Part shown: piece after piece, positions 1 to 25,126 of the stretch
How the letters are laid out: the number at the start of each line of letters is the position of its first letter
Position numbering within the stretch: the first letter of the stretch is position 1
IMG/VR virus record: IMGVR_UViG_651053023_000011
Span: 1-41,897 of that record
Origin: a virus
Lineage: Duplodnaviria; Heunggongvirae; Uroviricota; Caudoviricetes
Length of the DNA stretch: 41,897 nt
Direction: 5' to 3' (one strand)
Notes under the pieces: generated by a model
Databases searched by the model: none
The model's input: the letters and a program-made list of their open reading frames with translations, nothing else
What the model was told of the DNA's origin: nothing
Position numbers and translations under genes: made by a program

Positions 1-567
1 TTATTCCACTATAAAATTCCTAACCGAATTCAAATCCCCCAGACTGCTCAGTTCCTCTTTCAATTCACGCTGACGTTGATAAATCTCGTCATTGCGATCG
101 ACCTGAGCCTGCGCCATTGCAGTAAGCAGCTCATCCAGTTTCTGCATCGACAGTTTCACCTGCTGGTTTTCCGCATCGCCCCATACCATGGTTTTTCGCG
201 CTGTGTCAGACTTTGATGCCATTACTGCCGGATAAAGGCGGGCCAGTGAGTCGGGGCCAGCGTTCCAGGTGCGGCCGTTCCATTCGAACGTGAACGGCTG
301 CGCTTCCTGTTCTGTGCGCCATACCTCAATTTCTCGTTTTTTAGCGTCCTTTGCTGCTTCCAGCATTTCAGGCGTAACAGTGAACGGGGCGATTTCGCCC
401 CATTTGCCGCTTTTCAGTTCCTGCCAGATTTGCTGGCCTGTCGTCGCGGTGTCTTCTGGCGTGGCTGTGTACGGAAGCGGGTCTTCCATTCCTTCAAACA
501 GCACGTCGCAGTCAATCGCACCGGACTCGGTGTAGCGGGGACTGGTGATTTTTTTAATTTGCATCAT
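1..567 (-). CDS. tail fibre assembly protein (Tfa-like chaperone)
   Basis: 188-aa ORF overlapping the upstream fibre gene by 4 nt; position and sequence typical of lambdoid Tfa chaperones; window begins at its stop codon. Confidence 0.7.
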   Translation of the reverse strand: MMQIKKITSPRYTESGAIDCDVLFEGMEDPLPYTATPEDTATTGQQIWQELKSGKWGEIAPFTVTPEMLEAAKDAKKREIEVWRTEQEAQPFTFEWNGRTWNAGPDSLARLYPAVMASKSDTARKTMVWGDAENQQVKLSMQKLDELLTAMAQAQVDRNDEIYQRQRELKEELSSLGDLNSVRNFIVE

Positions 568-2558
568 GAAACCCTCACAAACAAAGAAACCAGCCCCCGA
601 TTATAAAACGTGACATCCGGGCCTCCTGATAAAGCGAGATATGTGCCAGGCAGGGTACTTCCGTAGACAAATGACCTGGCAGCGGCACTAAATCCTGAAC
701 CGCGATACTCAGCTTCGAAGACCACCTGCCGGAGCCTTGATCCCGGCACAGGTTGCGTACGAAGTAATGTGACATCACTGCTGCCGCTATCTGGCAGGTA
801 TGCGGCAAGAACCAGGCTACCCGGTTGCGGAGCGCGCTGTGATGTAGTATCTCCTGCACATAACAGTTGTATCAGTCGGTCGCGTGACCAGAATAGCCGC
901 GACCATGCCCCGGGAAGTGTCGCCGAAGACATTGATTTTGTAACCAATACCTGATACTTAGCCGGCCCCTCACCAGTAGCGCCGCTGTATTCGGCATCGC
1001 CATGAAAAGTTATCCACCGGCCTGTTTCTGATTCAATACCGCCTGAACCAATTCCGCATCGTATTTCTATATCTACAAGCCCCCTGAAATAGGGTTGCCC
1101 CCCATCATAAGCAATGATGGGATTATATGAAATGCCACTCCCTCCATATTGTGTTACCGCGTAACGCCCGGGGGTGACTTCGAACACCCATTTCAGAAAT
1201 TCGGCAGGGCCATTTTTGGCGCTGAAATACACCACTTCCGACGAAGAGAACACATGCCCGTATCCGAACGCCCCCGGCAGCGCAACACGGCCTTCCGTGC
1301 TGTCGTAAAGGTCTGTCTGAATGTCCTTTACCGCTGCGCTTTTCAGCTCAAGCTCATTGCGCATGGCTTCCACTGTGGCCTGCGCCAGCAGTGACCGGGC
1401 TTTTTCTGACAGCGGAGACAGTGAAGCATTCCCGTCCTGATTAAAGCACAGAAGGTTATCTGCCCGTTCTTCCAGATTGCTGATTGCGGTTAACACGTCG
1501 CTGAGTGGTTGTTTACCCGCCAGCGCATTCATGATTGTTGTCGCAAAGTTCGGGTCATTACCCAGCGCCGCTGCCAGCTCATTCAGCGTGTCCAGGGCTT
1601 CCGGGGACGAGTCAACCAGCGCAGCAAGCAGTTTGCGGACAAACGCCACGTTCGCCATCTCCAGCCCGACGGCATCATCCGGTGGTGTTGGTGTGGTGGG
1701 CGTGCCGGTGAACGCCGGGCTGTCCAGCGGTGCTTTTGTTTTCGTCTCGTCCATGACGGTTTTGACAGCCTTTGGTGTGGCTGCCAGCTCTTCGCTGTCG
1801 TTGTCCGTATCACTACAGAGTTGCACCAGGCCTTTTTCTGTCGTGGAAGCATTGCTTCCCTTCAGGTCATCAACTATCCGTTGCGCCTCGTCCTTATGCT
1901 GTTTCGCGTTCTGCTCGCTTTTTGCTGCCGCTTCGGCGCTGGCTTTTGCCTCGCCGGTCAGCGTTGCAGCTTCACCGAGTTTATCGACCGCTTTCTTGAC
2001 TATCGTGTCGGCATCCTTGACGGCCTGCTCTGCGCGGGCGGCATCCTGTGTGGCAGATGATGCCAGCTGTGCCACCTGCTTTTTATCTTTGGCAACGGCT
2101 TCTGCATTCTGCTGTACGTTATCCGCCAGCGTCTCGCAGTCGCTCTTAATTTGTTGCGCATCAGCGACGTGTTGCCCGGCCTGTTGTTCGCTTTCCGCTG
2201 CCGCTTCCGCGCTCTGCTGCGCCTGCGCCACCATTTCCTCAAAGCGCTTCACCACGTCGGGTTTGAGGTCGCCTTCATCAAGGGCAGTCAGAAAGTCGTT
2301 CAGCGTACCGGGCCTGGAGTCGTCGTATACAGCAATGTCGCCAACACAGTACTCGTCGCGCCAGTCCTGCTTCAGATATACGCAATATTTTCCGGTTTGC
2401 GCCTTAAAACAGTACTCGCCACAGTTTCCTGTCACCACGTCGGCAACTGTGCGCATCACCACTTCTGAGGTGTTTACCCGGGATTTCAGAATTATGTGGC
2501 ATCCGGACATGGGGATGCCTGCGCCATCTATCAGCGCACCTGATATCACTACAGACAT
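564..2558 (-). CDS. side tail fibre protein (second fibre cassette)
   Basis: 664-aa ORF with Ala/Gln/Glu-rich shaft and motifs (ATPKAVKTVMDET, ALVDSSPEALDTLNELAAALGNDPNFA) typical of lambdoid side tail fibres. Confidence 0.75.
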   Translation of the reverse strand: MSVVISGALIDGAGIPMSGCHIILKSRVNTSEVVMRTVADVVTGNCGEYCFKAQTGKYCVYLKQDWRDEYCVGDIAVYDDSRPGTLNDFLTALDEGDLKPDVVKRFEEMVAQAQQSAEAAAESEQQAGQHVADAQQIKSDCETLADNVQQNAEAVAKDKKQVAQLASSATQDAARAEQAVKDADTIVKKAVDKLGEAATLTGEAKASAEAAAKSEQNAKQHKDEAQRIVDDLKGSNASTTEKGLVQLCSDTDNDSEELAATPKAVKTVMDETKTKAPLDSPAFTGTPTTPTPPDDAVGLEMANVAFVRKLLAALVDSSPEALDTLNELAAALGNDPNFATTIMNALAGKQPLSDVLTAISNLEERADNLLCFNQDGNASLSPLSEKARSLLAQATVEAMRNELELKSAAVKDIQTDLYDSTEGRVALPGAFGYGHVFSSSEVVYFSAKNGPAEFLKWVFEVTPGRYAVTQYGGSGISYNPIIAYDGGQPYFRGLVDIEIRCGIGSGGIESETGRWITFHGDAEYSGATGEGPAKYQVLVTKSMSSATLPGAWSRLFWSRDRLIQLLCAGDTTSQRAPQPGSLVLAAYLPDSGSSDVTLLRTQPVPGSRLRQVVFEAEYRGSGFSAAARSFVYGSTLPGTYLALSGGPDVTFYNRGLVSLFVRVS

Positions 2559-2581
2559 AGTTTTTCTCGCGATAAATTAAA

Positions 2582-3127
2582 TCAGGAAGAGGCTTCCGGA
2601 GAGACGGGCCATTCAATGGCGTTATATGAGGTTTTATCAGTGATAATGTTGAAATCCATCGCCTGCAGCGATTTCGCGTAAATGCGGTACGCTTTCAGTT
2701 TCTCCCTGTCTTCGTCACTGATTAATCCCAGCAGCAGGTCTTTTTCCCATTCGCTGGTCATGATGCTGGCCTGTTTTAACAGTGCATCACGCTCATCTTC
2801 CGCTTTAAGTTTGTAGTCAAAAACAAATTCATCATTGCGGTAGAACCAGTAACCAGGCGCGGTAATACGGCGATTGGCGGTAATATCCGGAACTTCAATA
2901 ACACTGGCGTTACGGGGTTCAATGCCTGTCACATCCTTACCGACCCACACCACGCGCCCGTCCCCGGAGTAAACCATTTTTATTGTGTCACTGGCAAAGT
3001 TCTTCTGTTCTTCATACCAGTTTTTGCCGTCTTCCGAAAAAAGCCAGGTGACACCATATTGTTTTGTCAGTTGATATTGTTCCGCGGTTTTCGGATTACC
3101 CGCAGTAATATTTTTTAAATGTAACAT
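2582..3127 (-). CDS. tail fibre assembly protein (Tfa-like chaperone)
   Basis: 181-aa ORF directly downstream of the first fibre gene; fibre-chaperone position. Confidence 0.65.
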   Translation of the reverse strand: MLHLKNITAGNPKTAEQYQLTKQYGVTWLFSEDGKNWYEEQKNFASDTIKMVYSGDGRVVWVGKDVTGIEPRNASVIEVPDITANRRITAPGYWFYRNDEFVFDYKLKAEDERDALLKQASIMTSEWEKDLLLGLISDEDREKLKAYRIYAKSLQAMDFNIITDKTSYNAIEWPVSPEASS

Positions 3128-3129
3128 TG

Positions 3130-4314
3130 TTAAACACTCGCCACGTTATACCAGGTGCCATTAATCAGTTTCTGAAGCGGACGGTAATACACGCCGCCGA
3201 TGTTATCTGCCGAATTACTTCCGGTTTCCTGCACATTAATACCGGATAACCCGTGGCCTGAAGGTGAGCGAAATGTCCAGGATACCTGGTTACCTCCCGG
3301 GTTGTAATACATTTCGGAACCATAACGCACATCCTGCACGCCGCCATTTCGCTGCTGATAGCGGGCATCAAAGTTTCCGTAGTTTGATGGAACCATCTGC
3401 CCGTTTACGGCAAACGTTATGCTGTTATCCGTATTCCTCTGACTGTAAAAATGCCAGCCAGAATCATCACCAAGCTCTGCAACAACAGGCCTTGAGGAAT
3501 TTCCCCATAGATTAAATCTTGCACTCTTCGTGGAAGAACTGTCACACGACAGCGTGAACTTTCTTAAATTGCCGGTCGAGAGATTTTCTAATGCCAGCAC
3601 ACCGTTTTTTGTAAAACGAAAGGCGTTGTGTCCCTCTGCAAACACATTAATAACACCGCGTCCGCCCCACTTAAAACCGGTATTGCTATCACAGAGCGTG
3701 AGTGATTTTTCACCCAGATTGTTCTCATTACCGATGCCAATCCTGTCACCAATAACCACATCGCCCTGGCGCAGGTTAATGGAAATGGGCCGCAGTGGGC
3801 CAATATCGCCATTCTCGCCCTGACCTTCACTGGTAGGGATAAGGTGCAGGCACTCTTCCGAGCGACGAAAAATCAGACCAAAGGCTTCGTTGAAAATCCT
3901 CAGCGCATTAACACCACGGATTTTCAGTTCCCCGGTCATGGTGTCACCATCACGCTGAACGGCATTTTTTGCCTTATCCACCGTAGGTTTTAATCCGAGG
4001 TTTTCAACAGCCTCATCCTTATCTTCCACATCCGAAAGGTTATTTTTTATCAGCAATGCCTCTTCGTTAATCGCACCGCCCACCAGTAATAATATGGCTT
4101 TATATAGCTGATCGTGTTCTTCTTTATTCAGTTCTATCCCGGCTTTCTCAATGACACCACAGATTTCCTCCTGAATGGCATCCCACATGGCACTGTTCAG
4201 CCAGGTGGCAAGGCGTCCTGTGCGAAGATTTCCGTCAGTAAATCCGTTCTTGCCCGGGCCAAACTTATCTTTTACCGCTGTCAGCGTATCAATCCTGTGC
4301 ATCTTCATCCTCAT
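3130..4314 (-). CDS. tail fibre protein (Mu S / P2 H-type N-terminus, Stf-like distal domain)
   Basis: 394-aa ORF; N-terminal region resembles baseplate-attachment domain of myovirus fibres, C-terminus (NLWGNSSRPVVAELGDDSGWHFYSQRNTD...INGTWYNVASV) resembles lambdoid Stf tips; true start may be an internal Met a few codons in. Confidence 0.7.
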   Translation of the reverse strand: MRMKMHRIDTLTAVKDKFGPGKNGFTDGNLRTGRLATWLNSAMWDAIQEEICGVIEKAGIELNKEEHDQLYKAILLLVGGAINEEALLIKNNLSDVEDKDEAVENLGLKPTVDKAKNAVQRDGDTMTGELKIRGVNALRIFNEAFGLIFRRSEECLHLIPTSEGQGENGDIGPLRPISINLRQGDVVIGDRIGIGNENNLGEKSLTLCDSNTGFKWGGRGVINVFAEGHNAFRFTKNGVLALENLSTGNLRKFTLSCDSSSTKSARFNLWGNSSRPVVAELGDDSGWHFYSQRNTDNSITFAVNGQMVPSNYGNFDARYQQRNGGVQDVRYGSEMYYNPGGNQVSWTFRSPSGHGLSGINVQETGSNSADNIGGVYYRPLQKLINGTWYNVASV

Positions 4315-4879
4315 CTGGATAGGAAAATAAAACGACAGTATGTGACGGACATAATTTATTAATCACGCACTCCGCAACCGTATCCCCCCACGTCCGGATC
4401 GGTGTGTTGCAGGCGTCCGTGCATGTCTGCCACTGAGCACCGGCATCCACCGGCAACGTCACACGCCAGAAATAACGCCAGCGATCCCCCCATTCCGGAT
4501 CGGGGCTTGCATCCAGATTCTGGAACTGTTCGATCGTCACGCCGGTATATCCCAGCGCCTCAAGCTGATCCAGGAAAAACTGCTCATTTATGCCGCCAGC
4601 TACATTGGCTTTTGCTTCAAGACGTTGCTGGCGCTGGCGTAATGTCTGGGTTCCGACAGGAGAACAGGAATCAGGTAAACCATACAATTTTTCATAACGT
4701 TCAATCAGCTCTGTGGACTGACCGGGATCGATTTCAATCACCAGTTCATCAGCCCGCTGGTGAACACGCACAAGCGATGGAGCCAGACCGTCAAGTACAC
4801 CGTCGGTATCTGACCATGCAGGTCCCGGCGGCATCAGGCCATACAACAATTTTGTATAATCATCCTGTAACGTATCCAT
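4289..4879 (-). CDS. baseplate/tail protein, Mu gp48-like (DUF2313-type)
   Basis: 196-aa ORF in conserved position after baseplate J gene; start overlaps upstream stop. Confidence 0.65.
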   Translation of the reverse strand: MDTLQDDYTKLLYGLMPPGPAWSDTDGVLDGLAPSLVRVHQRADELVIEIDPGQSTELIERYEKLYGLPDSCSPVGTQTLRQRQQRLEAKANVAGGINEQFFLDQLEALGYTGVTIEQFQNLDASPDPEWGDRWRYFWRVTLPVDAGAQWQTCTDACNTPIRTWGDTVAECVINKLCPSHTVVLFSYPDEDEDAQD

Positions 4880-5961
4880 TATTTACTCCTTACCGGGTCA
4901 TAAGCCTGCCATGTGATCTCCCCGAGTACCGGAAGCTCAGTTTCCCCCAGGTCAATATCCGATGAAGGGTCGATGAGTCGATGGGCCACCTCGCCTGCAG
5001 ATAAACTGATAGCCTCGCTGATTCTGGACAGATACATGCGCCCTTCCGGCACACCATCCCGGAACATCAGCGCATTCAGTTCTGATTTTATTGCCGCCCT
5101 GATTTGCGGTGTGTCTTTCGATAACGCAATCGTCATCGGGATAACTTTTTCTGTGGCACCGAATACATACAATCCGCTTCCGGCAACAGGTGCCAGAGGA
5201 AGGATGTGGTCCCTGACTGCGTTAATCACGCTTTCATCCGGGGCCGGGTGTTCAGGATCGTTCGTCGCCACCATCACGCCAACCGTTCCAATACCTTTCC
5301 AGTGTCTGAAAGTCCATGCACGGTTAATACCCTGAACTTCTTTCGCCCAGATAACATAATCAGGATCTGCGCCCCCCTGTGGAATGTAGTAATAACGTTC
5401 CATAACGCGGGCACGCCATATTTCCAGATTTTCAATATCTTCACCGTCTGTAATGGTGTCAGCGTATCCTGTGGACGGCAGACCACTGACGGGTGTTCCC
5501 AGCTGCATGGCAATACCATCATCCGTATTCCCCGCCGATCCCGGTTCGTCTGCCACAACAGGCACCCGGAGAAGACCATCGGCTGCGGTCACCGTCGCCG
5601 TCGTGGTGAAGGTCACCTGATCATCACGCTGGATCTGCGTTCCCGCTGGCAATACCGGCGTCCCCTCTACGCCATCCCAGCGCACAAATCCCCGGGCTGC
5701 CACCGCATCTTTTCGCGGGCAGCGTTTGATTCTGGCGTGCCGGTACAACCAGTCTTCATCACACATGTCCGGCAACAGATTTCTGGCAAGATAATCGATA
5801 TACCCGTACAACGTGTGTACGGCTGCAGCCTGTACACGGGCATACACTTCCGCATCCATACGACGAAGCAGCGTATCCTGCTCAAAGCGGGTTAATAAAT
5901 CGCTCCGGATCATAGAAATAAGTTGCGGAAGGCCGGGGCGATAAAACTGACTGTCAGCCAT
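4879..5961 (-). CDS. baseplate J-like protein (Mu gp47-like)
   Basis: 360-aa ORF; size, position and sequence consistent with baseplate J family. Confidence 0.75.
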   Translation of the reverse strand: MADSQFYRPGLPQLISMIRSDLLTRFEQDTLLRRMDAEVYARVQAAAVHTLYGYIDYLARNLLPDMCDEDWLYRHARIKRCPRKDAVAARGFVRWDGVEGTPVLPAGTQIQRDDQVTFTTTATVTAADGLLRVPVVADEPGSAGNTDDGIAMQLGTPVSGLPSTGYADTITDGEDIENLEIWRARVMERYYYIPQGGADPDYVIWAKEVQGINRAWTFRHWKGIGTVGVMVATNDPEHPAPDESVINAVRDHILPLAPVAGSGLYVFGATEKVIPMTIALSKDTPQIRAAIKSELNALMFRDGVPEGRMYLSRISEAISLSAGEVAHRLIDPSSDIDLGETELPVLGEITWQAYDPVRSK

Positions 5962-6367
5962 TCAGTTCACTCCAGATATCATCAAAAATAATGTTGTGAA
6001 TATTGCCGTCACGCTGGTAAATGGTAATGGCAAGTGCCAGCGAGTCTGTCCCGGTCCGGACAGCGTTAATATCAAGACGGGAAGCAACACCATCCTCCAC
6101 CATCCACGCCAGCGCCTCACGGGCATAATCTCTGGCAAGCTGCGGGGTTTTATTTGTCAGCTTGCTGCGTCGCAACAGATACAGACGCGACCCCGTGCGA
6201 TCATTCTGAACCGCAGGCCAGGTATCTCCCCACCATCCAAATATCTGCGGTGCATCATCATCCCGCCCGGCACGCCGCCAGGTAAAAAGCGAAATAATCA
6301 CAGCACGCGTCAGAAGGTCGAGCGAAGCCCCGGTCGACACGGATCGCCCGTTAACATTAATCATCAT
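5954..6367 (-). CDS. baseplate protein, Mu gp46-like
   Basis: 137-aa ORF between gp45-like and gp47-like genes; overlapping start/stop. Confidence 0.65.
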   Translation of the reverse strand: MMINVNGRSVSTGASLDLLTRAVIISLFTWRRAGRDDDAPQIFGWWGDTWPAVQNDRTGSRLYLLRRSKLTNKTPQLARDYAREALAWMVEDGVASRLDINAVRTGTDSLALAITIYQRDGNIHNIIFDDIWSELNG

Positions 6368-6372
6368 GATTT

Positions 6373-6906
6373 TCAGCCCATCGGTTGATCTGGCGTGTCA
6401 GTGATCCCACCACCATCACCATTTTCGGTGTGTTTGTGGGCATTGTAGGTCTGCCGCATTTGCTGCATGCTGAGTCCGCCACTGTCGCAATTGTCAGTAA
6501 TATCAGCGGTGGATTCGACAGGCATTTCAAAGCGCGCTTTAGGCGCGTTTTGAAAAATAATGGGCTTCCCGCCCCCGTTCACCACAATACCGGAACGAGT
6601 CAGGACAACGGATTGCCCCTGATCGTCATAAAGCGCCACTTCCCCACGTTTCAGTCCTTTCAACCGGTAACGTCTGTCAGCCACGACCACAACCACACCA
6701 TGAGAACGATCGCCCGCCGGGAATAAAGCAACGCCCTCAGCACCGTTATGTGCAGCAGATGTAAAACCATAAGGCTCAAGGTGCTCAACGTGTTGTTTCT
6801 GATCTCCGGCTATCATTTTCAACCCTACAGACTGACACTTTCTGGCTGAATCCACCGCCGTGATGACAGCCCGGGAAATCAGATTGCGAAGAGAAAACCC
6901 GTTCAT
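6373..6906 (-). CDS. baseplate assembly protein V / spike (Mu gp45-like)
   Basis: 177-aa ORF with strong RBS (GAGGAGG) upstream; gpV-like sequence. Confidence 0.7.
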   Translation of the reverse strand: MNGFSLRNLISRAVITAVDSARKCQSVGLKMIAGDQKQHVEHLEPYGFTSAAHNGAEGVALFPAGDRSHGVVVVVADRRYRLKGLKRGEVALYDDQGQSVVLTRSGIVVNGGGKPIIFQNAPKARFEMPVESTADITDNCDSGGLSMQQMRQTYNAHKHTENGDGGGITDTPDQPMG

Positions 6907-7960
6907 CAGAAATCCTCCTCAACATTTTTTTCTTCCTGCCGGTAACAGGCTCGGGGAGATAAGCATCTGCCGGGCCAACCCGTAATTCAGTCGTCGTGCC
7001 CCGGTCGTCCTGGTTATAGGTGACTTCTGCGATCACCAGTTCATCATTATCAAAATTATTCAGCGGGTCGAAAACGATGACAGATAACCCCGGACGCCAT
7101 AACGCGCCACTGCCCTGCCGCCAGCCCTGAACCGTATATGTTGTCTCACGGGTAAGCGCAGCCCGTTGACGCGCTTCAAATTCACAACGGGCCTTACAGG
7201 TTGCTGTCGTTGCTGTGCCTGACTGCTGAATCAACAAAGGGCGATAACGGGTCACACCACTGTCCTGAATGGTCTGACGTATTGCGGCAATGGTGGCCTC
7301 ACCAAAATCATCATCGTTGCCCGGGCGCTGCCCACTGACCTGATATTCAGAAAACCGCTCTCTGATGCTTCTTTCCGTATCACAGGAAAGAATATTCTCT
7401 CCCAGCACCAGTGCTGTCGCCGCTTTGCCTGTTCCGGTTTTCCCCAGAACCAGTCGACCGCATTCATCGTCATAAGCCAGCGTCTGAACCTGCCCCAGCA
7501 ACCGGTTAAGACAATCGGCAACGGTTTCGCCGTGTTCCGGCTGGGCATCAATCACCGCTGTCTGCGGCACACCGGCGTCAACAACGGTGATGCCAAATGG
7601 CGCAGCCAGTTCACTGACGATTCTGAGCAGGTTTTTTCCGCTCTGCTGGACTGGCAAAGCAGAGCAGTCAACCAGATCGGCTGTTTTGCTTCGCCCGACA
7701 ATTCCCATGCTGACGCTGCTGGCGTCATAACGAAGCGGTAGAGCCTCCACATATCCGGTGAGCACGGGCTCATCCCCGATAAGCACTTCAACCAGCTCAC
7801 CATTTTTTATCCGGGGCTGATAATCCCGGCTTCCGGGCCAGCGGGTGGTAATGGCAACATTAAAATCCCGGGCAATACGGTTAATGCCCGCACTGATTCG
7901 GACGGATGTCCAGCCGCCCCATTCGCGACCAGAAACCCGAAGTAAAACGGTATTATTCAT
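6785..7960 (-). CDS. baseplate hub protein, Mu gp44 (P)-like / late control D family
   Basis: 391-aa ORF; its last ~40 codons overrun the gp45-like start; one extra base in the T7 run (~6925-6931) would end it exactly at the gp45 start. Confidence 0.7.
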   Translation of the reverse strand: MNNTVLLRVSGREWGGWTSVRISAGINRIARDFNVAITTRWPGSRDYQPRIKNGELVEVLIGDEPVLTGYVEALPLRYDASSVSMGIVGRSKTADLVDCSALPVQQSGKNLLRIVSELAAPFGITVVDAGVPQTAVIDAQPEHGETVADCLNRLLGQVQTLAYDDECGRLVLGKTGTGKAATALVLGENILSCDTERSIRERFSEYQVSGQRPGNDDDFGEATIAAIRQTIQDSGVTRYRPLLIQQSGTATTATCKARCEFEARQRAALTRETTYTVQGWRQGSGALWRPGLSVIVFDPLNNFDNDELVIAEVTYNQDDRGTTTELRVGPADAYLPEPVTGRKKKMLRRISDERVFSSQSDFPGCHHGGGFSQKVSVCRVENDSRRSETTR

Positions 7961-9348
7961 CTGACGGGTACCCTTAATGCCCTGATCGGAACAAAGCCCG
8001 GATGGGAGATGGCATTTCGATCCAGGATATCAGTTTCACGGGACGCATCGTCGTACCATGACGCAGCCAGAACAAGCGCAGGAAGAACCTCCGCTGGCGT
8101 TCGCTCTGCGGTCTCCTCCGTCTGAACCAGACGGGCCTGAATATCCCGGTTCAGTTCTGTACGTAATGACGTCAGCTGAAAAAACAGCCTGTCATCCGCC
8201 GCACGCCTGAGCTCCTGTTCAATCGCCGCGTTCAGCGATTCGCGTATGATGGTGAGATTTTCCCGCGTGGGTGGTTGCGCGGTCTCATCCTGCTCTGTGC
8301 TGGCTGCCACGCTGTCAAGCGCCGGATGAGAAACATGAATGATATCGGACTGACGTTCAGTGGAACCACCAACAGCCACAACCGCCTGCTGATTTTTCAC
8401 CAGACTTCCGGGTTGCGGCAGTGAAGTGACCGCCCTTGCAGCCTCGCTGATTGCCGTCGTCCGGATGACTGCAGCCACCAGATTTGTCTGCTGTTTTTGC
8501 CTGACAACCGATGCGGAATCTGTGGGCCACACAGCACGCGGTGCCAGTCCTGGATCCAGCGTAATACCTGACATTGTCGTTATGGACTGCACCAGATCCT
8601 GTGTGTTACCCACCAGTCTGGTTCCTGCCCGCCAGGTATCCTGCAACGTATGCACAAAATCACTGGCAACCGACGGCGGCATCAGAATGACGGATAAATC
8701 GCCCTGCAGTAGTCTCGCTCCGGCAGAAACAGCCGAATTAACCATTTTGAAAGCTGTCTGAACGGTTCCCAGCATATCGGTTGCCCGGGCAATAACATCG
8801 TTCTGAATAAAGTCCGATATTCCCGCGAGATCAAAATCGCCGAACATGTCTTCAATCAGCTCATCCAGGAATCCGGACGACTCCTCCAGTTTTCTGGCGG
8901 TTGCGGCTCCGGCGACCGGGAATGACAGTTCCCCGCTCTCAACAAACTGAAATGAAACCCGGCACATACGGCCTTCCGTGCTGGAATGAGAAACGGTCAC
9001 CTGTCCGTCAATACAACCCTGCATTTCACCGAACTGCGGATGGATCAGTGTCCCCGGCCCGGCGGTTTCAATCGCGGTAATCAGCCTGTCGCGCTGCTCT
9101 GCGTAATCATCACCAACGAGATACGCATTAATCGTCAGCCGTCGCGTGGCACGCCCGAGATCTTCCGTGTACGGTTTGTCACGGTTTGGGTATTCATGGA
9201 CCTGAACGCGGCGTCCGAACGAACCCTCGTCGCTTTCCACCGAAAACGGAACGCCACGAAATGAAGCATCGTAAAGATTATCGCGCCAATTGATACCTGA
9301 AGATGCAGAAAGGAGTGAAGAAAGAGAAGGTAAAGAAGGTAAGTCCAT
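7957..9348 (-). CDS. DNA circularization protein N-like (Mu gp43-like)
   Basis: 463-aa ORF between tape measure and baseplate hub genes; N-like sequence. Confidence 0.65.
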   Translation of the reverse strand: MDLPSLPSLSSLLSASSGINWRDNLYDASFRGVPFSVESDEGSFGRRVQVHEYPNRDKPYTEDLGRATRRLTINAYLVGDDYAEQRDRLITAIETAGPGTLIHPQFGEMQGCIDGQVTVSHSSTEGRMCRVSFQFVESGELSFPVAGAATARKLEESSGFLDELIEDMFGDFDLAGISDFIQNDVIARATDMLGTVQTAFKMVNSAVSAGARLLQGDLSVILMPPSVASDFVHTLQDTWRAGTRLVGNTQDLVQSITTMSGITLDPGLAPRAVWPTDSASVVRQKQQTNLVAAVIRTTAISEAARAVTSLPQPGSLVKNQQAVVAVGGSTERQSDIIHVSHPALDSVAASTEQDETAQPPTRENLTIIRESLNAAIEQELRRAADDRLFFQLTSLRTELNRDIQARLVQTEETAERTPAEVLPALVLAASWYDDASRETDILDRNAISHPGFVPIRALRVPVR

Positions 9349-9361
9349 ACTGTCTCCACTA

Positions 9362-9386
9362 TAAAAAAACCGCCAATTTCTGGCGG
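9362..9386 (-). terminator. rho-independent terminator after secreted-protein gene
   Basis: Dyad CCGCCA/TGGCGG with 5-nt loop followed on the minus strand by a T7 run. Confidence 0.5.
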
Positions 9387-9394
9387 CTTATATA

Positions 9395-9877
9395 TTAATC
9401 ATCACTAATATCTTTCATATTCAATTTGCAATTTTCGTAGGTCACTCCAGACTCGCCATTAACATTAACTCCAGCTCTGATATTCCCGTTTTCTTTTACA
9501 TCTACAAAAAACTGGCCTCTTGGCATCTTGAACACAAATGTAAAACCAACGGTATCTGAATCAAAATCATCATCTTTATATATTGGGATCAGATGTGTCA
9601 TCGTCGCTGGTGATGCATTGTTTGCAAAATCAAATACACCTATACTTTTGCCGAATTCATAAGAAGCTTTTCTCAATATAATCGCACCGCTGGCAGAAGG
9701 GGATGGGCACGATATCCTCAGTTGTCTGAATCCATCTGTATCCAAGTCAACATCATTATATGCAGATGCTTTAACGTTATTAACAAATCGTGAAGCAATC
9801 TCCGCATTTGTTAGTGTTTTCGCCTGAGCACAGCAAGAGGTTAATATTGCAACTGTCATTAAAAATGGCTTTATCAC
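9395..9877 (-). CDS. secreted protein of unknown function (moron in tail operon)
   Basis: 160-aa ORF with N-terminal signal peptide (MIKPFLMTVAILTSCCAQA/K); GTG start with GGAG upstream; visibly AT-rich relative to flanks; own terminator. Confidence 0.6.
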   Translation of the reverse strand: MIKPFLMTVAILTSCCAQAKTLTNAEIASRFVNNVKASAYNDVDLDTDGFRQLRISCPSPSASGAIILRKASYEFGKSIGVFDFANNASPATMTHLIPIYKDDDFDSDTVGFTFVFKMPRGQFFVDVKENGNIRAGVNVNGESGVTYENCKLNMKDISDD

Positions 9878-9944
9878 AAAACAAACTCCATTGTTAGCAT
9901 GTTACGCGATAATTTTGCCTCATCTCTCACCACAAAAAAAGAAT

Positions 9945-11894
9945 TCACCTTTTAAATGGAGAATACCCAACGTCATGGGTGATTTTCATAAAGGGATCGC
10001 CTGTTTTCGGCAAATCGATGACACGCATTCCCGGCGGCGCGTTGTCAAACGTCACCTTAAGTTCGCTGCGGGTTGCCGGTGACGATGAAAGGCTTAACAG
10101 TTGATTCCTTTCCAGTGATACATTCGGGATGTAGCGTTTATCTGGAGATAAATACCCATCACCACGTGGCATCTGCCATCCGGTCATGTCATAGACAAAA
10201 TCATGGAACTGTTTGCCCCACTCGTCGAACTTATCATTCAGACCAAATCCACTATTCAGTGCATCAGCCACAAAATTTTTAACAAGCCAGGGATGTTCTT
10301 TTTCAAACTCCTGCGCCATCATGCCCAGTTCAAGCAATCCACCAATCAGACTGATCTTACCAAGCCCCTTTAATTTCAGCGCCGTTTTTCCTGCCGCCGT
10401 TGTCCATTGATTCTGGGCGACTGTTGCTGCACGAATGGCTGCCACCGCTTTCACACCAATATACAGGGCAGAAACCGTTGCTATTGTTTTTACTGCCTGT
10501 TCCCATCCCCCCATTGCCCTGACAACCTGATCAACCTCCTGCCAGACTTTTTTCACAACCGGCCCGACCGTTTCCCAGTTGTCAATAATGAGATACGCCC
10601 CCGCTACCAGTAACGTAATGAGTCCCTTTGCCGGTGTCATATTCATCACGCTACCCATGATTTTTGTTATGCGTGTCAATGTGCCAATCGCCACGCCCAT
10701 CGTCAGTAATGCCGCACCAGTTTTCGCGATGGTTTTTACGACATCAGGATTTTCTCTGACAAACGTGCGCACTTCTTCCAGAAAAGGCTTCATCTCTTTT
10801 ATGCCTTCATTGATTGAAGGCAGGAAGGTTTCCCCCAACGTGGAAGAAATCGCATTGATCTGGTTCTGCAGCAGCAACAACTGATTTTCCGTCGTCGCGG
10901 CACGGGCGGCATATTCTTTCTGCATTGAGCCGCCATACTGCTGCGCATCCGCCACACGATTAAAATTGGTTCGCAACAAATCCAGATTCGTGAGCAGCGG
11001 CGCAATGGCTCCCAGAGACTCCTTCCCGAACAGCGCATTAAGCACAGCAGCCTGTTTTTCTTTCGGCACTTTCGCCAGAGAATCCAGTACGTGCAGCATG
11101 GCCCCACGGGCGTCTTTCTGCATATCCGCCGCCAGTTTTTTCGGGTCAATGCGCAACAGGCGAAGCGCTTTTTTCTGCGATTTGGTGGCAGAATTCCCCG
11201 CTGTCAGCGACAGCATAAAATTCTTTATCCCCGTCGCTGCAATTTCTGATTCCACCCCCATTCCGGCAATGGTTGCCCCCATTGCGGCAATCTCTCCGGA
11301 GGCCACACCCGCAACACTGCCTAAAGGGCCAATACGGGTCACAACATCAGAAATCTTTTTCGCACTTGCAGGACCAGTATTGCCAAGATAGTTAATCTTG
11401 TCCGCAAGTCCTGCCACTTCTCCCTGTGTCAGCTTAAAGGCTGTGCGCCACTGTGCCATCATCTGACCGGATTCTTCCGCCGTGGTGTCAAAGGCCACCC
11501 CCATCTTCACGGCGTCGTCAGTAAACTGCATCAGCTCGTCACGGGCGATGCCAGCCTGACCACCCGCCGCCACGATTTCGGCGATACCTTCCGCCGACAT
11601 GGGCAGTTCTGTTGACAGGTCGCGCACCTGTTCCGTCATTGCCTTAAACGCTTCCGGCGTATCCAGACCATCCACCACTTTCCGGACATCCGCCATTTTT
11701 GATTCAAGGGCAATGGCAGATTTGACCGGGAGCGCCAGCGCCCCCAGTACTGCGGTTCCGGCACCCGCTGCGCCCAGAGACAGGCTGGCAAACTCCTTTT
11801 TAAAGCCTTTCAGCTGGCGCTGCATCCCCTTCAGCGGTGCCGACACCTTATCCACGGCAGTGATGATCGCCTTCAGCTGAAAACTGTCAGCCAT
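9945..11894 (-). CDS. tail tape measure protein
   Basis: 649-aa ORF, Ala/Gly-rich with predicted coiled regions, downstream of chaperone pair. Confidence 0.85.
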   Translation of the reverse strand: MADSFQLKAIITAVDKVSAPLKGMQRQLKGFKKEFASLSLGAAGAGTAVLGALALPVKSAIALESKMADVRKVVDGLDTPEAFKAMTEQVRDLSTELPMSAEGIAEIVAAGGQAGIARDELMQFTDDAVKMGVAFDTTAEESGQMMAQWRTAFKLTQGEVAGLADKINYLGNTGPASAKKISDVVTRIGPLGSVAGVASGEIAAMGATIAGMGVESEIAATGIKNFMLSLTAGNSATKSQKKALRLLRIDPKKLAADMQKDARGAMLHVLDSLAKVPKEKQAAVLNALFGKESLGAIAPLLTNLDLLRTNFNRVADAQQYGGSMQKEYAARAATTENQLLLLQNQINAISSTLGETFLPSINEGIKEMKPFLEEVRTFVRENPDVVKTIAKTGAALLTMGVAIGTLTRITKIMGSVMNMTPAKGLITLLVAGAYLIIDNWETVGPVVKKVWQEVDQVVRAMGGWEQAVKTIATVSALYIGVKAVAAIRAATVAQNQWTTAAGKTALKLKGLGKISLIGGLLELGMMAQEFEKEHPWLVKNFVADALNSGFGLNDKFDEWGKQFHDFVYDMTGWQMPRGDGYLSPDKRYIPNVSLERNQLLSLSSSPATRSELKVTFDNAPPGMRVIDLPKTGDPFMKITHDVGYSPFKR

Positions 11895-12308: not shown

Positions 12309-12664
12309 TACTGATATCCTCCCTCTTCGCCGTGGAATTCAAGATCTGCCGTACCTTCTTCGGCATTATGGTTTGCTTCGCCATGCAGCCAGGCCGCCGA
12401 AAGCACATACACCATGCCGTTTGCCAGCTCGGCAGTAATCGTCATCTGGTCTGAGGCGGTAATTTTGTCGACCGGAAAATTTTTGGGCACTTTAAACGTG
12501 CCCTTAACGTAAGGTGACCGCCAGGTCTCCTTGTAATCCACATCACCAGCCATGCCGACGACATCATCCCGGACATTGGTGTTCATCGGCACTTCAATGC
12601 CACCTGTCAGCGATAACTGCTGACCATCCACTTTAAAAAAACAGGTTCCGGCGATCTTTGCCAT
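12308..12664 (-). CDS. tail tube protein (Mu gp40 / M-like)
   Basis: 118-aa ORF immediately after sheath gene with ATGA overlap. Confidence 0.8.
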   Translation of the reverse strand: MAKIAGTCFFKVDGQQLSLTGGIEVPMNTNVRDDVVGMAGDVDYKETWRSPYVKGTFKVPKNFPVDKITASDQMTITAELANGMVYVLSAAWLHGEANHNAEEGTADLEFHGEEGGYQ

Positions 12665-14160
12665 TATGCTGACTCCTCTGAATACTGGAGACGGAACTGG
12701 TTAACCACCGCAAAGACACGTAACTGGTTAACATAATCCGGCGGGAACAGCGTGTTCAGTCGGTTCGGGTTATCCGCATCACGCTCAACTATCAGATACT
12801 GTTTAAACAGATCGTAATTTTCCACAATACCGGCACGCTCCATCTGACGATATGTCGCCAGAAGCTCCCCTTTGATAACGGCAGGAGTAACAATCGCCTG
12901 CCCAGGACCAAAACGGGTACCATCATTTGCCAGCTTGTGGCGTCCGTACTTGCTTGTGATGACCGATTTCAGTTTGCGAAGAACATATGCGCTGGTATGC
13001 AGTGTTTCACTGTCCAGATAGCTGTTGTCTGCCACGCCATATGCATTCTTTTTGTATGTGGTTACGGAACGCTGGATCCGCAACGTGCCGCCTTCCACAT
13101 AAGCCGTCGCCACGCCGTGAGATAAAAGGGTCTGCTGCTCTGTCATGATGAATCGCTTACCTTTCGGTGCCGGAAGCATCCCCACCAGTTCCCCCGTCTG
13201 TGTCGGACGGGCCGGGTCATTGCGGATAAATACCGCTTCACGGGCAAGGCGACTGGCAACCAGTTCATCGACAGGCGACTGGGTTTCTTTTTCGTAACCG
13301 GCAAGCGTGATATGTTGCTGATTATGCATATCTCCGGCATTAACCAGCTCTGACAGCGTTCCCAGTTTTGCGGTATAGACATGCCCGTATAACTGGCGCG
13401 CATAACTCCAGCGACCGCTGCTGTCATTCATTTCGGTCATCATCATATTGATGGAGGCGGCATCGTTGAACGGCAGACCGATAAAGTCGAATGCCTCATC
13501 GCCCATAGCAGCAACAGCGGCGGTAAGATCAGGCGCGCCGCTACCCGCAGTTCCGGCTTCCGTCACGACCTGAAGCCCCGCAGGCAGAATCTCACCACCA
13601 CCAGAACCATAATAATTCAGGCAGACAGGCAACTCGTTACCATACAGCCCCTTATGGCGGGCAGTCAGCGTCACCACACCTGCATCAGATGACGCCGCAA
13701 ACGGCAGGGTGATAACCCCGTTTACCGCTTCCTTAATCGCGGTGGCAACCGCAGTGGCATCATCGCCATTCACCACAGGCACCTGTACACTGGAGCGCCC
13801 GACATACAGACTCAGGGTGCCGCTTTCCTCTGCTTCTCCGGTAACTGTCACCCTGACCGTCGCCGCCGCCCCTCTGGCTTCCGGTACTGCAATAACATAC
13901 AGTTCACCGAAAGGATCTGTCTGACGGTAGACGTCAACCATACGCGCCAGCTGGCTCCCGGCCCCACAAATCTGACGGGCATAATCTGCTGACGGCATCA
14001 GCACCAGGCTGTTAACCTCAATGGCGGCATCGTTGCTGGCATGCCCGATCAATAATGCAGGCGCGCTGGTCACTGCTGTATTTGCAGCAGAATTGTCCAT
14101 CTCGGCGTAAAACAACGGCACCAGCGTATCCGACGGAACAGCACTAAAACTTATTGTCAT
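12664..14160 (-). CDS. contractile tail sheath protein (Mu L-like)
   Basis: 498-aa ORF; sheath-like sequence and position. Confidence 0.9.
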   Translation of the reverse strand: MTISFSAVPSDTLVPLFYAEMDNSAANTAVTSAPALLIGHASNDAAIEVNSLVLMPSADYARQICGAGSQLARMVDVYRQTDPFGELYVIAVPEARGAAATVRVTVTGEAEESGTLSLYVGRSSVQVPVVNGDDATAVATAIKEAVNGVITLPFAASSDAGVVTLTARHKGLYGNELPVCLNYYGSGGGEILPAGLQVVTEAGTAGSGAPDLTAAVAAMGDEAFDFIGLPFNDAASINMMMTEMNDSSGRWSYARQLYGHVYTAKLGTLSELVNAGDMHNQQHITLAGYEKETQSPVDELVASRLAREAVFIRNDPARPTQTGELVGMLPAPKGKRFIMTEQQTLLSHGVATAYVEGGTLRIQRSVTTYKKNAYGVADNSYLDSETLHTSAYVLRKLKSVITSKYGRHKLANDGTRFGPGQAIVTPAVIKGELLATYRQMERAGIVENYDLFKQYLIVERDADNPNRLNTLFPPDYVNQLRVFAVVNQFRLQYSEESA

Positions 14161-14327: not shown

Positions 14328-14889
14328 TTATTTCTGAGGGAAACGCATTTCCAGATGGTGCTCAAAGTCACCATCTGGGCCAGTACCAGGATCAATGTAA
14401 TCCACATCAATACTCAGCAGGATAAATCCGGCAGAGCATTCACGTCCTCTGCCTGTCGCGTGTCTTCTTCCGTGATTTCATACTTCGCCGTAAAATCAAA
14501 CTGGTAATACAGTTCGTAACGGTTCAGATCCAGCAGCGTGCCACCGGCATAAACAATCTCGCCCCCCTGCGGGTCCGGCATCCACCCAAGCAGGGCTTTC
14601 CAGAGTTCTCTACGACATCATGAACGGCGTCATAGGCTGCCCACTGCCCTTTTTCATCACGCTCATTGCTGAGCACAACAATAACGGAGAAGCCTTCTGT
14701 CAAATCCTGCCAGTAATCGGTCTGTGATTTTTGTTCCCCCGGCGCATCGTCAGAGGGGACAACATAGGCAGCAGGCAGACGCAGTTTTCCGGCATCAGGG
14801 ATCGCCTTAAACTGCGCTGCACCACCAACACGATTCTCAAAACGCGGGCATCGCTCACGCAACGCCGCAATTATTGTTGTCAGTTTCAT
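14328..14889 (-). pseudogene. Mu gp37-like (DUF1834-type) gene interrupted by two frameshifts
   Basis: Track ORF 14524..14889 ends in junk-like tail; coherent continuation (LWKALLGWMPDPQGGEIVYAGGTLLDLNRYELYYQFDFTAKYEITEEDTRQAEDVNALPD, then LSIDVDYIDPGTGPDGDFEHHLEMRFPQK) lies in two other frames. Confidence 0.5.
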
Positions 14890-15410
14890 TTATGCTTCCT
14901 TTTTACCGGACGTAACGAACACTGCAACTCACGGGACAACAGTTCCTGCGTCCAGTGACGCCGCCGCTCAATAACGTCAGCCATAAAGTTATTACGCGGG
15001 GCCAGCCGGAAAGCCGAAGAATGGTGCTTCTTCTGCCGCTTATCCTTTTTATCCATTCCATAAGCTGAATGGCGAACGCCGTAATACAGAAATGCCGGAT
15101 AATAGGGTGCGCCTTCAGGGAAACGGCGATTCCCCTGCCCGTTTTTCTGGTTAGGAGAAATTTTCACCATCAGTCCGGGGCGACGCGTCGTTTTTTTGGG
15201 AACGTAATAACCGATGGAGCGGGCCAGACGCCCGGTCTGATATCCCGGGTTCTCTCCCGGACCGGATCGTCCGCGTTTAATCACCAGACGTCTTGCGTCG
15301 CGCATATAGACGCGCCCGATCTGCACAAATGCCCGACGCAGACGGGCGCGATTAAACTCCAGCTCCTTTGGTTGTTTAAAGTCGACGTGTAAAAATGCTG
15401 TCTGATTCAT
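14886..15410 (-). CDS. HK97 gp10-like head-tail joining / tail completion protein
   Basis: ORF with internal ATG preceded by GGGGTGA; position between adaptor and tail genes. Confidence 0.5.
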   Translation of the reverse strand: MNQTAFLHVDFKQPKELEFNRARLRRAFVQIGRVYMRDARRLVIKRGRSGPGENPGYQTGRLARSIGYYVPKKTTRRPGLMVKISPNQKNGQGNRRFPEGAPYYPAFLYYGVRHSAYGMDKKDKRQKKHHSSAFRLAPRNNFMADVIERRRHWTQELLSRELQCSLRPVKRKHK

Positions 15411-15792
15411 GGCATTCACCCCGTCGTCGCGCTGTACGCAGTTCTTCACATTCCAGCAATAAAAAACGCCGCTGACCGTTCAGGTCGCGTATTCGCCGGA
15501 TCCGGTACTCCTGACCGTAATAAACCACCTCATGATCTGCCGTGATGTCGTGACGGAAACGGATCGTAAAATAATGCGTAACGATATTTTCTGTCTGCAC
15601 TGAGCCCTGATAAGCGGCAGCGCCTGGCTGAGCCACCTTTGCCCAGACATCAAACGACTCCGTATATGTCGGCTCCGTACCAAAATCAGCGGTGGGTTCA
15701 TCCACCCGAAGGCGGATCTTTATTCGGCGATTCAGCTCTCCGGGATCCGGTAAAAGGTAAGTGGCACTGGTCTGACTTTGTCTGATTTTCAT
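15376..15792 (-). CDS. head closure / head-tail adaptor protein
   Basis: ORF starting at MKIRQSQ with ATGA overlap to upstream gene; conserved position after connector. Confidence 0.55.
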   Translation of the reverse strand: MKIRQSQTSATYLLPDPGELNRRIKIRLRVDEPTADFGTEPTYTESFDVWAKVAQPGAAAYQGSVQTENIVTHYFTIRFRHDITADHEVVYYGQEYRIRRIRDLNGQRRFLLLECEELRTARRRGECHESDSIFTRRL

Positions 15793-16112: not shown

Positions 16113-16158
16113 ATTTTCCTCCTGTGCCCGCAATTACGCGGGCACAAAAAAAACCGCA

Positions 16159-24942: not shown

Positions 24943-24961
24943 CGTGACTTTTCCTTTTAGT

Positions 24962-25053
24962 GGGTGAGCCTGCGCCCGGGGGTGACCAGTCCACAGAGAA
25001 AGTCACACTGACCATCCCGTAAGCTCACCCCTGAAAGGCTCTGTGGTTTTTTT
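24962..25053 (-). other. structured leader with interleaved dyads upstream of TerB-like gene
   Basis: GGGTGAGC (24962-69) pairs GCTCACCC (25023-30); CCACAGAG (24991-98) pairs CTCTGTGG (25039-46); T7 run follows on + strand. Confidence 0.35.
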
Positions 25054-25126
25054 GATGTGCGCCGGGCGTGGCGCGGAAATAAAAAAGGCCCGCCGTAGCG
25101 AGCCGCATAAATACTGAATTCTGAAT

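Follow-up and report, generated by a model that had tools for sequence, protein, structure and literature searches.

The window examined here is the whole of a 41.9 kb sequence (41,897 nt), IMG/VR record IMGVR_UViG_651053023_000011, which is an E. coli phage in the form of a temperate, stx-negative, phiP27-like prophage in reverse orientation. This report concerns its first 4314 nt, where two genes for tail fibres are each followed by a gene for a smaller helper protein. The region is filled by four open reading frames (ORFs) on the minus strand, referred to in the order in which they are read as fibre 1, tfa1, fibre 2 and tfa2 (Table 1). They make up the distal end of the late (tail) operon, and the stop codon of tfa2 is formed by the first three bases of the window. 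A preliminary description of the sequence had reported two consecutive pairs of fibre and helper genes on one strand, and the four ORFs are indeed intact and have strong Pfam and PHROG matches, and are not chance ORFs. It had also called the two cassettes different in type. They differ in anchor, tip and chaperone class, which is more than had been stated, and the tips are unrelated to each other.

Annotated counterparts of the four genes, all intact and in this same layout, are present in phiP27 (L54 to L57; GenBank accession number NC_003356), Rac-SA53 (tail1 to tail4) and pPE4 (ORF67 to ORF70). phiP27 was reportedly described by Recktenwald and Schmidt in 2002. The layout has thus been in GenBank since phiP27 (2002), its genes receive routine names from the Prokaryotic Genome Annotation Pipeline (PGAP) and every domain family in it is known; what is new is the combination of tip and shaft that the window carries within the phiP27-type two-fibre module. 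Some match to the region was found in 453 of 5426 complete E. coli genomes, 19 of which hold at least 80 % of it. The PGAP product names in these 19 are phage tail protein, tail fiber assembly protein, prophage tail fiber N-terminal domain-containing protein and DUF4376 domain-containing protein.

The gp48-like baseplate gene and fibre 1 overlap by 14 nt, the gaps between fibre 1 and tfa1 and between tfa1 and fibre 2 are 2 and 23 nt, and the fibre 2 stop and tfa2 start overlap in ATGA (-4 nt), an arrangement in which fibre 2 and tfa2 are predicted to be translationally coupled. The true start of fibre 1 is likely to be M5 (nt 4302), giving 390 aa, because MHRIDT opens both phiP27 L54 and the protein that PGAP predicts in E. 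coli ETEC4090. Promoter-like and terminator-like sites in nt 1-9000 were not in excess over shuffled sequence, which gives no sign of an internal promoter or terminator between the cassettes. A weak hairpin at 2597-2585 falls within the conserved ...PEASS* codons of tfa1. We infer that both cassettes are co-transcribed as one operon.

Two fibres and their helper proteins

Fibre 1 is predicted to be a baseplate tail fibre of the Mu S (gp49) type. It matches Mu S (PDB 5yvq) at E 6e-25 in three stretches spanning aa 30-389, the blastp alignment to Mu S likewise consists of three colinear segments, with residues 33-126 among the aligned parts, and the gene is preceded by Baseplate_J and Phage_Mu_Gp48 genes and followed by a Caudo_TAP gene. 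The N-terminus had been described as of myovirus type, in agreement with the alignment of residues 33-126 and with the position of the gene after the Mu gp47 and gp48 homologues. However, the tip had been called Stf-like and this needs to be corrected, as the match to 5yvq makes it Mu S-like and fibre 1 had no blastp match to lambda Stf at E ≤0.01. The N-terminal ~115 aa, common only to phiP27 L54, co-occur with the baseplate type and are exchanged in pPE4 and Rac-SA53, where another N-terminus of 230 aa is fused to the same C-terminal part. Fibre 1 would dock on the gp47/gp48 wedge through this N-terminus, with gp48 as the presumed partner.

The tfa1 product can be assigned to the Tfa/Mu U-type tail fibre assembly chaperones (Caudo_TAP). 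It scores 84.3 bits against PF02413, for which the curated cut-off is 22.1, and blastp aligns it to Mu U' with 47 % identity (E 5e-61) and to Mu U with 40 %. In the mosaic comparison with phiP27, the N-terminal half of tfa1 co-varies with the fibre 1 tip and the C-terminal half is conserved.

Fibre 2, as judged from the anchor, coiled coil and shaft, is a side tail fibre of the lambda Stf type. Residues 1-123 are 43 % identical to lambda Stf (blastp), and the collar domain (family PF08400, phage_tail_N) in residues 1-93 matches the StfN collar domain of Ur-lambda (PDB 9e7m) at E 6.5e-17. Residues 1-193 match gp40, the 'collar spike' of the Vibrio myophage XM1 (PDB 7kjk), at E 8e-10. The AlphaFold2 (AF2) model of residues 1-123 (pLDDT 78) has six strands, then a helix from residue 100, and when this collar model was compared to the PDB using Foldseek there were only two matches at E ≤1e-3, namely 9e7m_Ta (target template modelling score, TM, 0.88; 45 % identity) and 7kjk_A3 (TM 0.63, E 1e-7, 24 % identity). 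Further along, aa 219-276 align to residues 338-395 of lambda Stf and aa 342-396 to residues 1-55 of orf314, in that order (blastp).

The length of the fibre 2 shaft is plastic. A segment of ~750 nt (1350-2100) is missing in phiP27, and the shaft is duplicated in Rac-SA53. Fibre 2 of the window is 174 aa longer than L56. Over the four phages fibre 2 is 490, 664, 667 and 1061 aa long, with the same collar domain and with tips that are 69-80 % identical. Rac-SA53 tail3 (L003 1208-4393), the 1061 aa version, has both the shaft and part of the tip region duplicated, and aa 1-466 and aa 273-664 of fibre 2 both align to it, in series. For the fibre 2 tip, blastp found no match in lambda (Stf/T4 gp37-type tip) or Mu, and no PDB chain matched it by sequence. 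Its AF2 model (aa 401-664; pTM 0.47), with a pLDDT of 65, found no Foldseek match in the PDB at E ≤0.001. There are 121 homologues of the tip, mostly E. coli fibres of ~430 aa with a P2 H-type (PF12571) N-terminus.

Each fibre had been said to have its own Tfa. This holds for tfa1 (Caudo_TAP), but the 188-aa tfa2 product is a DUF4376 protein without similarity to Tfa. It scores 58.5 bits against PF14301 (DUF4376; cut-off 25) and has 1813 homologues labelled 'DUF4376 domain-containing protein'. No Caudo_TAP signal was seen even at E ≤10 (relaxed Pfam), blastp found no similarity to tfa1, lambda Tfa or Mu U/U', and there was no match to PDB sequences at E ≤1. Assignment of tfa2 as a Tfa (Caudo_TAP) was rejected, given the lack of a PF02413 match and of Tfa/Mu U similarity.

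Experiments support a class of chaperones made up of DUF4376 proteins whose genes follow a fibre gene. In Alteromonas phage V22, gp27 is essential for active fibres and has been proposed to be a transient cap (PMC7289586, PMC10579305), and the H-fibre of Campylobacter CJIE1 depends on the DUF4376 gene downstream (PMC7882524). By analogy, tfa2 is presumed to be the cognate chaperone, and possibly the cap, of the fibre 2 tip. The same pairing is found in a further locus (L012, see below), where a tip 86 % identical to that of fibre 2 is borne by a PF12571 anchor and the next gene encodes a DUF4376 protein with 78 % identity to tfa2. DUF4376 has been equated with the C-terminus of TfaMu (PMC7882524); this was not reproduced here, as Caudo_TAP and DUF4376 proteins had no cross-similarity in blastp or relaxed Pfam searches.

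Table 1. Features of the window. Ratios of non-synonymous to synonymous substitution rates (dN/dS) are pairwise, window versus phiP27, Rac-SA53 and pPE4 (dS range 0.05-1.3).
Feature	Position (nt)	Strand	Product or residues	Matches and remarks
Fibre 1 ORF	4314..3130	minus	394 aa	phrog_6859 E 3e-179; dN/dS 0.21-0.52
Fibre 1 baseplate anchor, lineage-specific	3958-4302	minus	aa 1-~115	
Fibre 1 conserved shaft segment		minus	aa ~122-177	
Fibre 1 variable tip, predicted receptor-binding	3133-3771	minus	aa ~178-390	
tfa1	3127..2582	minus	181 aa	Pfam Caudo_TAP E 1.1e-23; dN/dS 0.16-0.25
Fibre 2	2558..564	minus	664 aa	Pfam phage_tail_N E 9e-62, Phage_fiber_2 E 2.6e-16; phrog_2636 E 1e-212; dN/dS 0.14-0.21
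Fibre 2 collar (anchor) domain, lambda Stf type	2280..2558	minus	aa 1-93	six-strand beta-sandwich plus helix
Fibre 2 Ala/Gln/Glu-rich segment, presumed trimeric coiled coil	1854..2261	minus	aa ~100-235	from composition; boundaries approximate
Fibre 2 shaft with Phage_fiber_2 repeat and ALDTLNELAAALG motif	1359..1853	minus	aa ~236-400	Pfam E 2.6e-16
Fibre 2 distal tip, presumed receptor-binding domain	567..1358	minus	aa 401-664	
tfa2	567..1	minus	188 aa	Pfam DUF4376 E 1.1e-15; phrog_1141 E 1e-86; dN/dS 0.10-0.15
Mosaic segment	3770-6500		baseplate genes and fibre 1 aa 1-177	98 % identity to phiP27
Mosaic segment	2850-3770		fibre 1 tip and tfa1 N-terminal half	diverged from phiP27, with indels
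Mosaic segment	2100-2850		tfa1 C-terminal half and fibre 2 aa 1-~150	95-97 % identity to phiP27
Mosaic segment	1350-2100		part of fibre 2 coiled coil and shaft	absent in phiP27
Mosaic segment	1-1350		fibre 2 tip and tfa2	72-93 % identity to phiP27
Mu gp48-like (YmfQ family) baseplate wedge protein	4289..4879	minus		Pfam Phage_Mu_Gp48 E 1.7e-25
Baseplate wedge protein, Mu gp47/Baseplate_J homologue	4879..5961	minus		Pfam Baseplate_J E 2e-53
Tail sheath	12664-14160	minus		Pfam Phage_sheath_1, sheath domain II and C-terminal domains
tRNA-Gly(tcc)	25517-25591			stretch corresponding to phiP27 stx region
tRNA-Thr(tgt)	25595-25670			stretch corresponding to phiP27 stx region
DNA methylase	25836-26882			in stx-equivalent stretch 24900-26900
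Tyrosine integrase	40833-41897			at window end

Conservation, mosaicism and distribution

From the dN/dS values in Table 1, both cassettes are under purifying selection and neither looks like a decaying remnant. The preliminary description had named a non-expressed remnant as the case that would speak against it, and over the four genes the selection data (dN/dS 0.10-0.52) argue to the contrary.

Relative to phiP27 the region is a mosaic, with breakpoints that coincide with domain borders (Table 1). As dS to phiP27 is ~0.5 in the fibre genes and 0.04-0.07 in the neighbouring baseplate genes, the whole fibre region has been replaced by recombination. pPE4 is colinear with the window at 89 % over nt 1-3939, the match ending at fibre 1 residue ~121. 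When 24 structural proteins of the window were compared by tblastn to pPE4 and to Rac-SA53, which also encodes a tail sheath, only fibre 1 aa 115-390, tfa1, fibre 2 and tfa2 matched, and there was no match at E <1e-3 for the other virion proteins. Because only these parts are shared between otherwise dissimilar myovirus lineages, the module moves as one unit extending from fibre 1 residue ~115 to the end of tfa2. These genome comparisons show the two-fibre module to be mobile by recombination among otherwise unrelated myoviruses. The collar domain is 90-100 % conserved across lineages with unrelated neck and tail proteins, and ~100 % conserved relative to phiP27.

We note that pPE4 was deposited as 'Actinobacillus phage vB_Apl-pPE4' (PP818812.1; L005). 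It is colinear with Rac-SA53, a prophage at the E. coli Rac site, it carries the typical E. coli Rac genes RecT, exonuclease VIII, Kil, DicA and YdaT, and its fibre module is 89 % identical to that of the window. The stated Actinobacillus host looks doubtful.

A third myovirus lineage (L012), with Baseplate_J, DUF2590, HP1_ORF34, Com and methylase genes, contains counterparts of both cassettes. The C-terminal 313 aa of its fibA are 95 % identical to fibre 1 and its Caudo_TAP protein is 86 % identical to tfa1, while fibB consists of a PF12571 anchor and the fibre 2-like tip described above (86 % identity). Since this locus carries both sets on P2 H-type anchors, this pair of tips and helpers travels together on different anchors. 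Dual receptor specificity, as proposed in the preliminary description, can be retained in conditional form: intact genes, purifying selection, unrelated tips and the recurrence of both tips with their chaperones in L012 all suggest it.

Collar homologues with 65-76 % identity were examined in three contexts, in E. coli and Salmonella (true Mu-type baseplates) and in Cronobacter (Rac-SA53-type tail). Each time, the collar fibre gene comes straight after a baseplate fibre gene and a Caudo_TAP gene. Among the contractile-tail prophages sampled, collar fibres 65-100 % identical to that of the window were always in a myovirus context, after a fibre and a Caudo_TAP gene. The other carriers of the collar domain in the phage collection are <60 % identical (lambdoid Stf ~45 %) and are essentially siphoviruses, including lambda, Stx phages, Gifsy, Fels-1, CAjan-like phages and Serratia and Klebsiella 'S' phages. 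By these identities and contexts, the myovirus-associated collar fibres form a group distinct from lambdoid Stf. Its only members among 50,697 phage records are phiP27 (two records), Rac-SA53 and pPE4. A scan of species-representative genomes for the collar domain recovered five E. coli/Shigella loci only, mostly degraded by insertion sequences (ISs), and the examples of phiP27-type baseplates without a collar fibre that were examined are decayed prophages.

The preliminary description had also suggested a recently acquired host-range cassette. Recent addition of the second cassette alone is not supported, as the four genes move as a unit and the design recurs in E. coli, Salmonella and Cronobacter prophages, but an exchange of the whole fibre region relative to phiP27 is in keeping with the dS values given above.

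Variants of the arrangement were also seen. In Salmonella enterica AAOBIN010000008.1 (L021 5549-6373), a gene for a 274-aa Macro-domain protein lies between the baseplate fibre gene and its Caudo_TAP gene, in a Mu-type prophage that also has a collar-domain fibre. In Shigella flexneri and E. coli ECMA0423 (L006-L010; proteins P0241-P0360), many truncated trios of tfa1, collar fibre and DUF4376 genes are located beside IS elements. One product, P0359 (143 aa), has PF08400 and PF14301 matches together and looks like a deletion fusion. Several database entries for fragments of the Shigella-type trio are misnamed 'shikimate transporter'. Related prophages in E. coli ETEC4090 (L011) and strain 700481 (L015) are integrated beside potB, at the fibre-gene end. 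In ETEC4090 the baseplate genes are pseudogenes and the four fibre and chaperone genes are intact, and in strain 700481 the reverse is the case.

Mounting of the second fibre

We consider it probable, though well short of certain, that this stx-negative, phiP27-like temperate myovirus carries in nt 1-4314 a host-recognition module with two fibres, which would work as follows. The ~115-aa anchor of fibre 1 would plug into the Mu gp47/gp48-type wedge and its tip would be folded by tfa1, and as in Mu this would be the fibre coupled to baseplate triggering of contraction. Fibre 2 would trimerise via its coiled coil and anchor via its collar domains, its tip helped by the DUF4376 protein. With both fibres on one virion at different sites, there would be two receptor specificities. 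Fibre 2 would form a collar ring at the neck and serve in reversible adsorption; by analogy to Ur-lambda Stf, it is likely to be an accessory adsorption fibre.

In a contractile tail, the junction of the tube and the distal tail protein is expected to lie inside the sheath and the wedge ring. As the junction used in lambda would thus lie under the sheath here, and as XM1 gp40 provides a precedent at the neck, the neck is the most likely single site for fibre 2, although docking there as a collar, like that of XM1 gp40, has in our estimation a little less than an even chance. In Ur-lambda, twelve StfN domains ring the gpV/gpM junction and carry four trimeric fibres, which can be dispensed with although they make adsorption faster (PMC12617516). 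The neck of XM1 bears six gp40 trimers (18 N-terminal domains, NTDs), which bind the connector gp4 and the tail terminator gp5 by means of the homologous domain (PMC10457771). An NTD followed by a coiled coil is described for both lambda Stf (PMC12617516) and XM1 gp40 (PMC10457771).

A number of points weigh against this interpretation. Virion proteomics, electron microscopy or adsorption data for this prophage, phiP27, Rac-SA53 or pPE4 were not found in the searchable literature, so we infer the expression and incorporation of fibre 2. The proposed docking at the neck draws on one structural precedent and a steric argument. The neck ORFs of the window (14524-16133) and of Rac-SA53, as well as the Rac-SA53 sheath, had no phmmer match to any PDB chain, XM1 gp4 and gp5 included, and lambda StfN, at 45 % identity, is a nearer relative of the collar domain than XM1 gp40, at 24 %. 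In L012 this tip belongs to a short fibre whose anchor is of the P2 H type and presumably sits on the baseplate, which suggests that the fibre 2 tip works near the plane of the baseplate. By a rough estimate, a neck fibre of 664 aa would be too short to pass a tail whose length is set by a 649-aa tape measure. The 90-100 % conservation of the collar despite unrelated neck and tail proteins would be odd for a specific protein-protein dock; this near-invariance fits a loosely specific ring-closure attachment, or a partner encoded inside the module.

Alternatively, fibre 2 would sit at the baseplate end of the tail, its collar domains ringing or docking on the sheath-baseplate junction or some part of the baseplate that is exposed, and both fibres would act side by side at the cell surface like J and Stf in Ur-lambda. 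The genes close the block of baseplate and fibre genes, the nearest relative of the collar is StfN, which is a tail-tip collar, the tip recurs in L012 on what is presumably a baseplate fibre, and the length of fibre 2 (490-1061 aa in relatives) does not scale with tail length. However, the lambda collar encloses the tube/distal-tail-protein junction, the equivalent of which is buried here, the sole solved collar-type domain on a myovirus sits at the neck, and lineages that have the same collar domain share no baseplate protein. We therefore regard mounting at the baseplate end as rather unlikely. A branched or serially extended fibre, in which fibre 2 docks on the fibre 1 shaft or on a tip-bound Tfa to give one composite organelle, has in its favour that fibre 1 (from aa ~115), tfa1 and tfa2 are the only proteins common to all lineages with this collar subtype, that in all the myovirus contexts examined a Caudo_TAP gene immediately precedes the collar fibre gene, and that conservation runs as a single block over the C-terminal half of tfa1 and the collar domain. 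In addition, North et al. 2019 (as cited in PMC7882524) are reported to have found that the Mu Tfa stays bound to its fibre. Operon position and recombination at domain borders would, however, account equally well for the adjacency and the conserved block. No precedent was found for a collar domain that binds a fibre or a chaperone, both solved cases being rings around hexameric tail or neck rings, and the fibres upstream in L017 and L021 have different tips. Such a composite fibre seems improbable.

It might also be argued that the second cassette contributes nothing to this phage's virion, being a passenger or remnant without function or serving a co-resident lambdoid siphophage solely in trans. 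In favour of this are the truncated and IS-disrupted copies that are common in Shigella-type genomes and decayed prophages, and a collar domain family that is otherwise typical of siphoviruses. Here, however, fibre 2 and tfa2 are full length with dN/dS of 0.10-0.21 at dS 0.35-0.9, they lie within the operon and are predicted to be translationally coupled, and collars of this subtype (65-100 % identity) occur in myovirus contexts alone and have only ~45 % identity to lambdoid collars, making this very improbable. Two sets of tip and chaperone after a Mu-type baseplate, one with a chaperone resembling Mu U' and U, also bring to mind alternative host-range determinants that are used singly, in the manner of the invertible Mu G and P1 C segments. 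We give this hardly any credence, as both cassettes are on the same strand and each has a complete N-terminal anchor, there are no long inverted repeats (the best is 33 nt at 76 %), and no invertase gene was found in the window region or downstream of L57 in phiP27, whereas Mu has gin and oppositely oriented S'/U'. An invertible segment of the Mu G, P1 C or e14 P type is effectively refuted by the common strand and the lack of significant inverted repeats and of an invertase.

Returning to the two-fibre module with two attachment sites, we tentatively suggest, as a possibility we would not rate as the likelier outcome, that temperate phages of Enterobacteriaceae with contractile tails, of both the Mu and the Rac-SA53 type, have in their Stf-type collar fibres a separate class of second fibre that had not been characterised before. 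The mounting site of these fibres would have no equivalent in lambda, being either as a neck collar or on the first fibre or its retained chaperone. If so, the anchor is portable and largely independent of tail lineage, which would explain the transfer of the module between unrelated myoviruses; a neck collar would make fibre 2 a neck-borne receptor-binding organelle, and attachment to fibre 1 or its chaperone would make a branched fibre. No paper on Stf-type collar fibres of contractile-tailed temperate phages, or on their docking site, was found in the accessible literature. The docking site is a reasonable structural question, though not a surprising one given XM1.

Prophage context and related systems

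Outside the fibre region, the window matches phiP27 at 96 % identity over 72 % of the length of nt 4400-29000 and at 94 % identity over 73 % of nt 29000-41897. The morphogenesis genes are on the minus strand and include genes for a DNA-circularisation protein and a Mu-type baseplate. The gp47 homologue is 31 % identical to Mu gp47 (blastp, E 1.5e-40) and has 98-100 % nucleotide identity to phiP27. The gp48 homologue, which is labelled 'YmfQ family protein' by PGAP in relatives, is 26 % identical to Mu gp48 (blastp, E 4e-13). Because the sheath domains and the Baseplate_J and Phage_Mu_Gp48 genes are present, the virion is predicted to have a contractile tail and a Mu-type baseplate. The order in phiP27 is methylase, tRNA-Ile, tRNA-Arg, stxA2e/B2e and then holin. 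There is no stx in the window prophage; just ~570 nt separate the lysis genes from the tRNA side, stx2e being absent here.

Two further genes stand out in composition or position. A gene for an OmpC/OmpF-type porin of 360 aa (27687-28769, plus strand; Pfam Porin_1 E 3e-149) lies inside a low-GC stretch (27000-29000) just downstream of the Q antiterminator gene (28958-29341, minus strand) and on the opposite strand, in a position occupied in phiP27 by the GIY-YIG nuclease gene L22. Prophage porins can change the receptors on offer to other phages. Between the tape-measure and DNA-circularisation genes, a 160-aa ORF (9395-9877, minus strand) without a Pfam match lies in a low-GC stretch (9001-10000, GC 0.43) and is unlike its neighbours in composition; it may be a moron or a tail-assembly gene.

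The region offers a clear case from nature of a whole host-range module, with two fibres and two chaperones, passing as one unit between myovirus lineages with no other detectable shared virion proteins. Baseplate anchors of the P2 H type and collar anchors of the Stf type can both carry one and the same tip along with its DUF4376 helper, which is useful for the engineering of fibres, pyocins and tailocins, and the region raises a testable question, namely where a lambda-type collar domain docks on a contractile tail. Among the phages concerned are prophages from pig and human E. coli that are Stx2e-converting or encode LT-II, and their host range therefore affects how the toxin genes spread.

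Each component can be compared to a known system. Like tfa2, V22 gp27 (which follows gp26; also in A5) and the protein associated with the CJIE1 H-fibre are ~190 aa long, have a C-terminal DUF4376 domain and are encoded right after the fibre gene, although those fibres are baseplate fibres and the likeness is one of size, domain and gene position. Ur-lambda Stf (PDB 9e7m/9mgh) is colinear with fibre 2 in the collar (43-45 % identity), linker, coiled coil and Phage_fiber_2 shaft. It differs in that the fibre 2 tip is unrelated to the Stf/gp37-type tip and the helper is DUF4376 rather than Tfa, and the virion here is predicted to be contractile, leaving no exposed equivalent of the gpV/gpM docking site. 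XM1 gp40 (PDB 7kjk) resembles fibre 2 in having an immunoglobulin-like N-terminal domain of ~100 aa and a trimeric coiled coil on a contractile-tailed phage. However, the identity is 24 %, the distal part of gp40 is tailspike-like, the partners gp4 and gp5 have no homologues in the window detectable by sequence search, and the fibre 2 gene is in a fibre block with its own chaperone gene.

In Mu, S and U are the counterparts of the first cassette: fibre 1 aligns along Mu S, tfa1 is 40-47 % identical to U/U', and both follow gp47/gp48 homologues. Unlike Mu, the window has no invertible segment or invertase, and its second cassette supplies not an alternative C-terminus but a whole fibre from another family with an anchor of its own. 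phiP27 L54-L57 are identical to the window genes in order, strand and position at the prophage end, as are the genes of Rac-SA53 and pPE4. The window differs from phiP27 in lacking stx2e and in having a replaced fibre 1 tip and tfa1 N-terminal half (~61 % overall amino acid identity, with indels). The baseplate and fibre 1 anchor are 98 % identical to those of phiP27, and among phiP27, Rac-SA53 and pPE4 the tfa2 products are 83-89 % identical and the collar domains ~100 % identical to those of the window.

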